From IMG/VR virus record IMGVR_UViG_3300045988_001472, positions 1 through 22,022 of that record: a stretch of DNA of 22,022 nt; one strand, 5' to 3'. Of the stretch, positions 20,189 through 21,808 are shown piece after piece (the first letter of the stretch is position 1; the number at the start of each line of letters is the position of its first letter). Below the pieces are notes generated by a model, which made no database searches, was not told where the DNA came from, and was given only the letters and a program-made list of their open reading frames with translations. The stretch comes from a virus. The translations under genes and the position numbers were made by a program.

Positions 20189-20638
20189 ATGGCAACAGAT
20201 AACGACATCATTCAATTTGCAGAAGACCTAGCTAACGCTGGGATTGGTACCGATGCAGACGGAGCTTATGGGACACAATGCGTTGACCTGCCTAACTCTA
20301 TCTCAATTAATTTCTTTGGCCGTACTCTTTGGGGCAATGCTATTGACTTGCTCAACTCAGCGGCAGAAGCAGGCTATGAAGTCGAGTATAACCAAATGGG
20401 GAACCTTGACAGTCGTCCACGTCGTGGGGCTGTATTCGTCATGGATACTACTTACATCGCAGGACACCCATACGGGCACACTGGTCTGGTTATCGAAGAC
20501 TCAGACGGCTATACCATGCGAACTATCGAGCAGAATATTGACGGGAACGCTGATAGCTTGTATGTTGGTGGTCCTGCTCGTTACAATACACGCAATTTTG
20601 ACGGTATTGTAGGCTGGTTCTACTTCCCAACAGATTAA
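20189..20638 (+). CDS. Endolysin, CHAP catalytic domain only (149 aa)
   Basis: The CHAP signature is present: Cys in [10 protein letters not shown], His in [11 protein letters not shown], then IEQNIDG. The ORF terminates at TAA 20636-20638, right at the domain boundary (GWFYFPTD*). Confidence 0.85.
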
Positions 20639-20666
20639 AGAGGAAACCGGATCATTCACAGTTGAA

Positions 20667-20879
20667 GTGTCAGCTCTCAACGTTCGAGCTGGTGCCGGTC
20701 TAGGTGCTGAAATCGTGGCAGTTTATGGAGCTGGCGAAACTATCAACTACGATGGCTGGTGTGACGTTGACGGCTATATCTGGATTAGCTACATTAGCTG
20801 GTCTGGAAATCGTCGCTATGTAGCAGTCGGCCAGTCAGAGAACGGCCGACGTGTAACGTCATTCGGTTCATTCGCCTAA
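20667..20879 (+). CDS. SH3b (SH3_5-type) cell-wall-binding domain ORF, in the +1 frame relative to the CHAP ORF. It is probably the displaced C-terminus of the same lysin.
   Basis: The sequence ALNVRAGAG..EIVAVYGAGETINYDGW.DVDGYIWISYISWSGNRRYVAVG is a typical lysin SH3b domain. The frame is open from 20613, and the domain-like residues EETGSFTVEV precede the only candidate start (GTG 20667). That GTG has no RBS. Confidence 0.7.
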   Translation: MSALNVRAGAGLGAEIVAVYGAGETINYDGWCDVDGYIWISYISWSGNRRYVAVGQSENGRRVTSFGSFA

Positions 20880-21003: not shown

Positions 21004-21053
21004 TGCTATAAAATGCTATAAAATGCTATAAAATGCTATAAAATGCTATAATA
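21004..21053. repeat. Tandem 10-bp repeat: (TGCTATAAAA) x4 followed by TGCTATAATA
   Basis: Read directly: four perfect units at 21004, 21014, 21024 and 21034, plus a fifth variant at 21044 that forms a perfect extended -10 box (TGcTATAAT). Confidence 0.95.
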
Positions 21054-21058
21054 TACAT

Positions 21059-21118
21059 GAAACGACAATCCCCCTGCATCCATTATGGACAGATACGTTC
21101 TGACGCAGGGCTTTTTTT
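21059..21118 (+). ncRNA. Candidate ~60-nt small RNA 1 (promoter-to-terminator unit)
   Basis: An extended -10 box TGCTATAAT lies at 21044-21052, so the start is expected near 21059-21060. The unit ends in an interrupted hairpin. The outer stem is CCCTGCATC (21072-21080) with GACGCAGGG (21102-21110), one mismatch. The inner stem is GGAC (21087-21090) with GTTC (21097-21100). A T7 run follows at 21112-21118. No RBS or credible ORF is present. Confidence 0.3.
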
Positions 21119-21119
21119 A

Positions 21120-21128
21120 TGTTATAAT
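21120..21128 (+). promoter_or_regulatory. Extended -10 promoter box TGTTATAAT
   Basis: It is a perfect TGnTATAAT. A CTGACG (4/6 match to the -35 consensus) lies exactly 17 bp upstream at 21100-21105, inside the 3' arm of the previous hairpin. Confidence 0.45.
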
Positions 21129-21134
21129 ATATCT

Positions 21135-21185
21135 ATCCATCATAGGCAAAGAGCTACGAGGTTATCTCATAGCTCTTTTTTATTT
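21135..21185 (+). ncRNA. Candidate ~50-nt small RNA 2
   Basis: The start is predicted ~7 nt after the -10 at 21128. A 14-nt unpaired 5' end (AUCCAUCAUAGGCA) is followed by a 12-bp hairpin, AAGAGCTACGAG (21149-21160) with CTCATAGCTCTT (21166-21177), one mismatch. The hairpin runs into a T tract. No ORF is present. Confidence 0.3.
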
Positions 21186-21256
21186 GTAATTTCCATAGAT
21201 AAGTGATAACATAGTCAGTGGAATACTTGGCGTCATTTCGATAAATTTCTCGAACT

Positions 21257-21284
21257 GCCCCCGGCTTTTAGTCGGGGCTTTTTT
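21257..21284 (+). terminator. Intrinsic terminator T4
   Basis: A GC-rich stem GCCCC(C)GGC (21257-21265) pairs with GTCGGGGC (21271-21278) around loop TTTTA, followed by a T6 run. Confidence 0.65.
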
Positions 21285-21321
21285 ATTTTGCAAAAAAACT
21301 TAAATTTCTTTGTAAAAAGTG

Positions 21322-21350
21322 TTGACAATATATAGTATATGTACTATAAT
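21322..21350 (+). promoter_or_regulatory. Perfect consensus sigma-A promoter with an embedded operator-like palindrome
   Basis: TTGACA (21322-21327), exactly 17 bp of spacer, then TATAAT (21345-21350). The inverted repeat TATAGTA-tatg-TACTATA (21331-21348) fills the spacer and overlaps the -10. Confidence 0.8.
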
Positions 21351-21403
21351 ATAAATGAAGATAAGGAAAGGGAGAACAAAAGAAGTTCTCAAGGTAAAAC
21401 AAA

Positions 21404-21586
21404 ATGGCATTAACACAAAAACAAATCAACGAACTTGTTACTGAATATAAAAAACACTACGATGGTGACGAAGAAGTCACTGAAGAAAAAGTCCTCAACG
21501 ACTTACAAGAGTACATGAAAGACTTCACAGATTACGAAGATTTCGACGAAGTTCCCTTTGAAGAATTGATTGACTTTATAGGATAA
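21404..21586 (+). CDS. Hyper-acidic 60-aa protein of unknown function
   Basis: It is the first ORF downstream of the consensus promoter. By direct count it has 11 Glu + 8 Asp against 5 Lys and 0 Arg. The RBS is weak (AAGG, 9 nt upstream). Confidence 0.6.
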   Translation: MALTQKQINELVTEYKKHYDGDEEVTEEKVLNDLQEYMKDFTDYEDFDEVPFEELIDFIG

Positions 21587-21603
21587 CTCAAAGGAGCAGC
21601 ATA

Positions 21604-21789
21604 ATGACAGATGCACAGCAAAAAGCCACTAAGAAGTGGAATGAGAACAATCGAGAACATCGGAATTACCTATCAAAAAGGTCGTCAGCTCGTAGCTTCA
21701 TCAGAAATCATGCTACGGGTTCGGACTTGAACGAGTTAGAGGAATTAATCGCAGAAAGACGTTGTAATTTGGGAACGATAAAAGACTAG
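21604..21789 (+). CDS. Small 61-aa protein with a basic N-terminal half, unknown function; possible DNA-binding regulator
   Basis: AAGGAG RBS. Residues 1-36 have 9 K/R against 3 D/E (KKWNENNREHRNYLSKRSSARSFIRNH). The C-terminal part is helical and acidic. It is co-transcribed with the acidic ORF. Confidence 0.6.
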   Translation: MTDAQQKATKKWNENNREHRNYLSKRSSARSFIRNHATGSDLNELEELIAERRCNLGTIKD

Positions 21790-21808
21790 GGGTATCCTAG
21801 CCTTTTTT
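21786..21808 (+). terminator. Weak intrinsic terminator after the two-gene cassette
   Basis: A 5-bp stem CTAGG (21786-21790) with CCTAG (21796-21800) is followed by CC and a T6 run. It overlaps the stop codon. Confidence 0.4.

Follow-up and report, generated by a model that had tools for sequence, protein, structure and literature searches.

Analysis of a 22,022-nucleotide (nt) stretch of viral DNA (IMG/VR record IMGVR_UViG_3300045988_001472, positions 1 to 22,022; this whole stretch is called the window below) identified a two-gene cassette at 21322 to 21808 that is probably an anti-CRISPR (acr) operon under the control of the anti-CRISPR-associated (Aca) repressor Aca13, with its first open reading frame (ORF1) as the payload, likely a small acidic inhibitor of a CRISPR-Cas effector. 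The window covers the late region of a siphophage of streptococci; among public records, the Streptococcus salivarius prophage YMC-2011 is closest, and there the same cassette lies between lysin and integrase. In both the window and YMC-2011, ORF1 is the only gene of the operon besides the repressor, and it must therefore be what the circuit regulates. An original prediction, made from the letters of the sequence, had described an autonomous acr/aca-like cassette with a strong promoter, an operator, and an acidic first gene, and this layout matches the published acr-aca13 system. The same prediction had recognized no similarity to any named family in either gene, which turned out to be incorrect for the second, ORF2.

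ORF2 (21604 to 21789, plus strand, as are all stranded features below) encodes 61 amino acids with an isoelectric point (pI) of 9.4 and is, by sequence homology, a member of the Aca13 family: a stand-alone aca13, that is, a repressor-family gene without a helix-turn-helix (HTH). A phmmer search of PDB chains aligned ORF2 residues 3 to 52 with residues 90 to 139 of 8YE6_B ("A32," AcrIIA32) at E = 1.9e-15, and the sequence identity of ORF2 is 61% with the reference Aca13 of S. equinus (WP_094140901.1), 59% with the AcrIIA32 C-terminal domain, and 85% with the Aca13 portion of S. salivarius AcrIIA31.1. AcrIIA32 is an Acr fused to Aca13, and AcrIIA31.1 is an Aca13-AcrIIA31 fusion from S. salivarius (Song et al. 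2022, Table S1, PMC8934645). Among PHROGs, ORF2 matched phrog_2277, which has no function label (E = 4e-27); searches of Pfam and NCBIfam gave no match and no HTH. Aca13 is a non-HTH repressor of acr promoters that acts via an inverted repeat (IR2) between the -35 and -10 boxes (Song et al. 2025, PMC12282945). That work used electrophoretic mobility shift assays (EMSA), an mCherry reporter, and mutagenesis, with EMSA and reporter data on S. uberis loci (the AcrIIA32 C-terminal domain and homologues), and found K92, W99, R107, and S111 of AcrIIA32 to be required. Three of these DNA-contact positions (W99, R107, and S111) hold the same residues in ORF2 (W12, R20, and S24), and R104/E105 align with R17/E18. 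As had been noted, the N-terminal half of ORF2 is basic (9 K/R versus 3 D/E in residues 1 to 34). An AlphaFold2 (AF2) model of the protein is all-helical (helices 3 to 15, 17 to 35, and 39 to 56; predicted local distance difference test [pLDDT] score, 89) and had no match in the PDB by Foldseek, which is consistent with a noncanonical DNA binder.

The promoter ahead of the two genes has the form that this repressor family uses. It is a sigma-A (sigma-70-type) promoter at 21322 to 21350, with TTGACA at 21322 to 21327, a 17-nt spacer, and TATAAT at 21345 to 21350; this 12/12 consensus, present just as first described, is the single exact match on both strands of the 22 kb, was found in 0 of 100 dinucleotide shuffles, and is kept in 34 of 36 ORF1 loci. 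The predicted Aca13 operator, for which no strand is assigned, is a perfect inverted repeat, TATAGTA-tatg-TACTATA (21331 to 21348), that fills the 3' portion of the spacer and extends 4 bases into the -10 box. The repeat had been proposed from the outset as a repressor site; it is exact and unique in the window, and none of 100 shuffles matched it. A terminator scan found none between ORF1 and ORF2, and no second Aca13-controlled promoter lies downstream of the operon in the window.

Copies of this repeat occur in aca13-linked promoters of other species. In S. agalactiae (group B Streptococcus, GBS) Javan5, TTGACT-tta-TATAGTAcatgTACTATAAT, also given as TTGACT-tta-TATAGTAcatgTAC-TATAAT, lies upstream of an aca13 homologue. 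S. equinus Javan213 carries TATAaTA-catg-TACTATA, with one left-arm mismatch, in two consensus promoters that flank aca13, of which the downstream one drives AcrIIA32.1; the pair is the two-promoter arrangement described in PMC12282945. We also scanned IMG/VR for the pattern TATAGTA-n4-TACTATAAT and obtained 150 sites in the first 120 stretches, 42 of which have a TTGAC[AT] -35 box at promoter spacing. The aca13 gene adjoins 39 of these 42 promoter-embedded repeats (36 downstream on the same strand and 3 within 200 nt upstream) and is near only 9 of the 108 copies that lack a -35 box. Among ORF1 loci, aca13 was present in 27/27 with TATAGTA-n4-TACTATA and in 0/7 with another palindrome, TATCATA/TATGATA, at the same position, all seven being ORF1-AcrIIA6 operons; because the loci are related, none of these operator and aca13 counts represents independent events. 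That ORF2 would be an autoregulator, as first proposed, is thus supported both by its homology to Aca13 and by this species-spanning linkage.

Two observations weigh against the assignment. ORF2 agrees with Aca13 in everything that could be checked in silico save one of the four contact residues: K92 is not conserved and corresponds to Q5, with K7 nearby. In addition, S. thermophilus phage CHPC1036 pairs the TATCATA/TATGATA palindrome with an Aca13 homologue, so the assignment of repeat to protein is not one-to-one, and a strict rule by which one operator class means that Aca13 is present is weakened. Even so, we are highly confident in the joint assignment of ORF2 as Aca13 and of the palindrome as its operator. 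The sequence at 21331 to 21348 is a well-supported candidate for the Aca13 operator, and by analogy Aca13 would bind this exact repeat.

The two operator classes and the wider Aca13 family gave several further observations. The TATCATA/TATGATA class comprises L013, L015, L017 to L019, L022, and L002 (CHPC1036; L numbers denote individual loci), and the ORF1-AcrIIA6 operons within it encode no known Aca. The CHPC1036 homologue of Aca13 has N at the position of ORF2 S24. In Javan5 (L004, 283 to 770), a promoter with the Aca13 operator is followed first by the gene of a 41-amino-acid hydrophobic peptide (MRISEIADLLTSIGTLLVGIASIITAIKKEPKKKNRPRRFK) and second by aca13. The unit is antiparallel to the lysin gene and adjoins paratox, and at least 6 IMG/VR contigs show the same layout. 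Cargo of an Acr slot was not expected to be a membrane peptide. Homologues of Aca13 that are 48 to 59% identical are found in Listeria phages, between lysin and integrase (B025, L003 2501 to 2674; LP-101; and others), and in Lactobacillus phiadh and Clostridium tetani phages, so the family extends well beyond Streptococcus. The B025 homologue is on the strand opposite to the annotated gp29/gp30, which suggests that this region has been misannotated.

Two small genes of opposite charge behind a palindrome-bearing promoter, insulated by terminators, could also be read as a toxin-antitoxin or addiction module in which an acidic antitoxin and a basic toxin are autoregulated at the promoter palindrome. 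The family of ORF2 is a demonstrated repressor that is fused to Acr domains elsewhere, and published expression of Aca13 in Escherichia coli implies that ORF2 is nontoxic alone (PMC12282945). ORF1 and ORF2 also each occur without the other, and no toxin-antitoxin family in Pfam or NCBIfam was matched. Given this independent occurrence and the published function of Aca13, we reject the toxin-antitoxin reading as extremely improbable.

The cargo gene, ORF1 (21404 to 21586), lies 54 nt downstream of the -10 box and 17 nt upstream of aca13. Its 60-amino-acid product is as acidic as had been noted, with 19 D/E, 5 K, and 0 R, a net charge of -14.4, and a pI of 4.05. The ratio of nonsynonymous to synonymous polymorphism (pN/pS) over 22 distinct alleles is 0.21, which indicates purifying selection and hence a real coding gene. 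An AF2 model has three helices (residues 5 to 18, 27 to 41, and 52 to 59; pLDDT, 87). Relatives of ORF1 form 267 clusters, the best 120 of which are all at least 80% identical to it. HMMER against 1.84 billion protein representatives returned 14 matches, made up of close relatives and fragments; one, a 7,917-amino-acid repetitive protein, was treated as spurious. S. salivarius phage YMC-2011 is the sole carrier of ORF1 in a set of 50,697 phage records, and no relatives turned up when 185,579 species-representative genomes were scanned twice. The ORF1 family is therefore small and confined to streptococcal mobile elements. Nothing significant was found in Pfam, PHROGs, or NCBIfam, anti-restriction and toxin-antitoxin families included.

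Although ORF1 is alone with the repressor in the window, its relatives keep varied company. Of 36 loci, 34 have it directly behind the promoter-leader module, and in each of these the leader hairpin described below is present; the gene or genes that come next are Aca13; AcrIIA25-Aca13; AcrIIA25-Aca13::AcrIIA31; Aca13::AcrIIA31; AcrIIA6; or orf13-like-AcrIIA6. It lies directly upstream of AcrIIA6 in L017 to L019 and L022, of AcrIIA25 in L026, L027, L029, L030, L032, and L040, and of Aca13::AcrIIA31 in many loci; on one short contig, a truncated acrIIA6 comes after it. Contigs of 200 to 370 kb likewise carry the cassette, away from lysin and near a PcfJ-like gene. The L038 and L041 lineages lack both this promoter and aca13; there, ORF1 is translationally coupled within a run of small genes located downstream of an orphan C5 DNA methylase.

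By association, we consider ORF1 somewhat better than an even bet to be an anti-defense protein. We propose that the operon, which sits in the variable region between the lysin gene and the lysogeny/early module of streptococcal phages, would operate as follows. Upon DNA entry, the sigma-A promoter and the A/T-rich element upstream of it would act at full strength to give one bicistronic mRNA, and ORF1 would act at once on its target, with the circuit setting its dosage. As Aca13 accumulates, it would probably dimerize and place its basic N-terminal helices on TATAGTA-n4-TACTATA; once bound, it would throttle the promoter to a low level and spare the cost of runaway expression. Going by other Aca systems, we expect a low maintenance level to be left in the lysogen, so that the cassette would presumably be expressed there. 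Our first guess for the target is the Cas9 of the S. salivarius/thermophilus group; type III-A, type I-E, or another defense could be targeted instead. DNA mimicry by ORF1 is a guess based on charge, since ORF1 has no similarity to AcrIIA4 and no fold match in the PDB; its three-helix model has no structural neighbor among known DNA mimics.

Several results count against ORF1 as an inhibitor of a CRISPR-Cas effector. A sequence search of PDB chains gave no match, and Foldseek with the AF2 model found none at E ≤ 0.001 in the PDB or BFVD; the combined homology and structure searches that had been suggested for both ORFs were therefore informative for ORF2, which they identified as Aca13 by sequence with no fold match, and returned no match for ORF1. 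The ORF1 profile scored below 4 bits against AcrIIA4, AcrIIA5, and AcrIIA24 to AcrIIA32, and BLASTP likewise showed no similarity to them, with AcrIIA33 to AcrIIA35 outside this comparison. Cargo in the Aca13-promoter slot is not always active against Cas9: the published orf1, orf8, and orf14 from this slot failed to inhibit Cas9 in E. coli assays (PMC8934645), and in GBS the slot also holds hydrophobic peptides of 40 to 41 residues. Guilt by association has succeeded for approximately one-third of candidates (about 30 candidates led to 9 families in PMC8934645, 2 of 5 succeeded in PMC10711425, and 1 of 3 succeeded in PMC12282945). As ORF1 is likewise nominated by association, at this published hit rate, it is a candidate and not a proven Acr. 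The authors of the acr-aca13 studies have noted that negative candidates may target other CRISPR types.

ORF1 is absent from the candidates tabulated in 2022 (PMC8934645), and neither BLASTP nor the profile found similarity to the non-Acr candidates of Song 2022. The 2023 and 2025 studies, with Aca11 and Aca13 as bait, yielded AcrIIA33 to AcrIIA35 plus six negatives (PMC10711425, PMC12282945), and their main texts give no candidate sequence, size, or host that could be matched with ORF1. Because ORF1 is the commonest neighbor of aca13 in S. salivarius-group elements, we put the chance that it was among those candidates at roughly two in five in our rough judgment, that is, a little short of even.

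The failure of several cargo genes of the same slot in Cas9 assays also fits a different account, in which ORF1 is a moron with a non-CRISPR target (restriction-modification, abortive infection, or, like paratox, competence) that uses the Aca13-buffered promoter. Aca-controlled operons do carry other defense and anti-defense genes (PMC13551039), one ORF1 lineage sits in a small early-gene string downstream of an orphan C5 DNA methylase, many related prophages abut host comGC, and GBS prophages have paratox beside aca13. On the other hand, the validated functions of neighboring cargo in ORF1 operons are anti-Cas9 only, and no anti-restriction family in Pfam, PHROGs, or NCBIfam matched ORF1. The paratox-like alternative named in the original prediction found no support: ORF1 has no Pfam paratox match, BLASTP showed no similarity, and the ORF1 profile scored 3.9 bits against one paratox sequence. 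We regard a non-CRISPR target as rather unlikely.

The extreme charge complementarity of the two proteins (-14 for ORF1 and +6 for the N-terminal half of ORF2) raises a further alternative, namely, a decoy role in which acidic, DNA-like ORF1 occupies the basic DNA-binding face of Aca13 (or another repressor), so that the promoter is shut off later and ORF1 serves as the operon's timer. Consistent with a timer, ORF1 always comes first behind this promoter with its own conserved leader hairpin, whichever Acr comes next, and the operons often already hold a validated Acr (AcrIIA25, AcrIIA31, or AcrIIA6), so that the locus could be explained without ORF1. However, seven loci have ORF1 and AcrIIA6 with no aca13, the L038 and L041 lineages have ORF1 with neither this promoter nor aca13, and the operon in the window would be left with no payload. 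We know of no anti-Aca protein of this kind, which also counts against a timer, and we consider it improbable.

Returning to ORF1 as an inhibitor of host defense, a more specific version can be offered tentatively. ORF1 may represent a new anti-defense family with a novel three-helix acidic fold, the first gene of S. salivarius-group acr operons, whose target lies beyond those of AcrIIA6, AcrIIA31, and AcrIIA25; the small RNA (sRNA)-like units at 21054 to 21284 might then be an RNA-based part of the same island. Because ORF1 often rides with these inhibitors of St1- and St3-type Cas9, it would in that case hit something else, such as a type III-A or I-E effector, another defense, or, in the role of a DNA-mimic timer, Aca13. 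We consider this version possible but not probable.

The flanks of the operon contain further elements. An inverted repeat in the leader, GAGAAC-n7-GTTCTC (21372 to 21390), had been noted originally and is predicted to form an RNA hairpin just 5' of a weak ORF1 ribosome-binding site, with a folding free energy (dG) of -6.9 kcal/mol (z = -3.3); it folds better than 200/200 shuffles. It is present in every promoter-linked ORF1 locus, aca13-less ones included, and its pairing is preserved as GAGAC/GTCTC in L021 (a paired one-base deletion) and as GAGAGC, with a G.U pair, in L018 and L029. Among the leaders compared, it is missing where the first gene of the operon is other than ORF1. Since it occurs with either operator class and is missing when another gene is first, the hairpin belongs to ORF1 and not to the promoter; it may stabilize the 5' end or tune ORF1 translation. 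Directly 5' of the -35 box, an A/T-rich stretch (21285 to 21321; TTTTGCAAAAAAACTTAAATTTCTTTGTAAAAAGTG) is kept in all related loci and, by analogy, is a putative UP element.

Hairpins with T-runs flank the unit on both sides, in agreement with the predicted insulation by terminators. The upstream intrinsic terminator (21259 to 21284; CCCCGGC-ttta-GTCGGGG with a T-run, stem at 21259 to 21277), located by a hairpin scan, also closes a conserved noncoding element that precedes the acr promoter and is kept in 26 related loci, with one-sided stem changes. The downstream intrinsic terminator (21786 to 21808; CTAGGGGTATCCTAG with a T-run) has a stem at 21786 to 21800 that overlaps the ORF2 stop codon.

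The 440 nt between lysin and the acr promoter hold a tandem series of extended -10-like boxes together with two or three units that each combine a promoter, a hairpin, and a T-run. The latter are kept in 26 loci, with some compensatory changes, and also occur 5' of the CHPC1036 acrIIA6 promoter. Four tandem copies of TGCTATAAAA, ending in TGCTATAAT, occupy 21004 to 21053; they are extended -10-like and are missing in most relatives. After the TGCTATAAT box, an sRNA-like unit at 21054 to 21118 has an outer stem, CCCTGC...GCAGGG, with T7 after it, and an inner hairpin, TCCA-tta-TGGA; two-sided changes in both stems in L018 and L024 (for example, TCCG/CGGA and CACAG/CTGTG) suggest a structured RNA. 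The element at 21120 to 21284 has an extended -10 box (TGTTATAAT), a 16-nt leader (TATCCATCATAGGCAA), and a hairpin (AAAGAGCTACGAG-gttat-CTCATAGCTCTTT) with T6, and continues with ...GATAAGTGATA...GGAATACTTGGCGTCATTTCGATAAATTTCTCGAACTG up to the terminator at 21259 to 21284; from its sequence, it looks like one or two sRNAs. Because a 2026 preprint describes phage RNAs resembling single guide RNA (sgRNA) that adjoin acr genes, we compared the upstream units with viral sgRNA (vsgRNA). No match was found in Rfam, its trans-activating CRISPR RNA (tracrRNA) families included; none of four exact substrings of the units was present in the part of the preprint's vsgRNA table that was compared; and local alignment to the St1-type sgRNA was no better than for shuffles. 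A relationship to viral sgRNA or tracrRNA was rejected for now.

Upstream of these elements, the lysin of the window is split (20189 to 20879): the ORF with the CHAP domain ends at a TAA at 20636 to 20638, and an SH3_5 ORF follows at 20667 to 20879 in another frame, with about 20 linker residues missing relative to the intact lysin of YMC-2011. The split might reflect a pseudogene, an error of sequencing, or a lysin made of two parts. At the other end of the operon, comGC, which encodes a competence pseudopilin, comes directly after the acr operon in L013, L015, L018, L022, L024, L029, L033, and L043; with comGC as the next host gene, those prophages sit at or in the comG operon.

The cassette resembles several known systems to different degrees. 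The AcrIIA1-controlled acr loci of Listeria prophages, reportedly described by Rauch in 2017 and Osuna in 2020, likewise combine a strong promoter, a palindromic operator, and autorepression between lysin and the prophage end; they differ in the fold of the regulator, which includes an HTH in AcrIIA1 but not in Aca13, and the two repressors share no sequence relationship. AcrIIA4, AcrIIA2, Ocr, and ArdA are small, strongly negative DNA-mimic inhibitors, and ORF1 shares their size and charge; AcrIIA4, however, has an alpha/beta fold, in contrast to the three-helix model of ORF1, and no sequence similarity to it. Paratox (Prx) of S. pyogenes prophages, like ORF1, is an acidic protein of approximately 60 amino acids encoded at the lysin-proximal prophage end, and in GBS Javan5 it is annotated next to the aca13 homologue, but it has no detectable similarity to ORF1, and to our knowledge paratox is not paired with a repressor in an operon.

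Closer parallels are found in the variable regions of S. thermophilus phages, which have UP elements and consensus sigma-A boxes in front (PMC13575424). As far as the account of Johnson et al. 2025 given in PMC13575424 extends, the variable region there also directly follows lysin, has a perfect sigma-A promoter and an A/T-rich upstream element, is expressed early, and contains anti-CRISPR genes. CHPC1036 shares the upstream noncoding element and the promoter-leader module with the window; none of the S. thermophilus phages in the phage collection has ORF1, which is carried by S. salivarius YMC-2011 alone.

The closest relatives are the acr-aca13 operons themselves (PMC8934645, PMC12282945), which have the same regulator family at 61 to 85% identity, the same promoter design (consensus -35 and -10 boxes that enclose an inverted repeat), and the same position at the lysin-adjacent end of the phage or prophage, with variable small cargo that includes AcrIIA25, AcrIIA31, and AcrIIA6 in sister operons. 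The window differs from them in that ORF1 is its sole cargo and belongs to a family absent from the 2022 table, in that aca13 stands alone whereas it is fused to an AcrIIA31 domain in most S. salivarius-group relatives, and in having no second promoter downstream, unlike the two-promoter loci of PMC12282945. As a system, the cassette is not new, because the regulator, the operator logic, and the locus type have all been published; what is new is the cargo family of ORF1, the leading gene in most anti-CRISPR operons of this group of phages. If ORF1 does inhibit a Cas effector, it would be a compact 60-amino-acid inhibitor with a new fold, with value both for the study of phage-host dynamics among oral and dairy streptococci and as an off-switch for genome editing. 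The definition of the Aca13 operator as TATAGTA-n4-TACTATA fused to the -10 box holds across species and offers a means of locating additional cargo genes.

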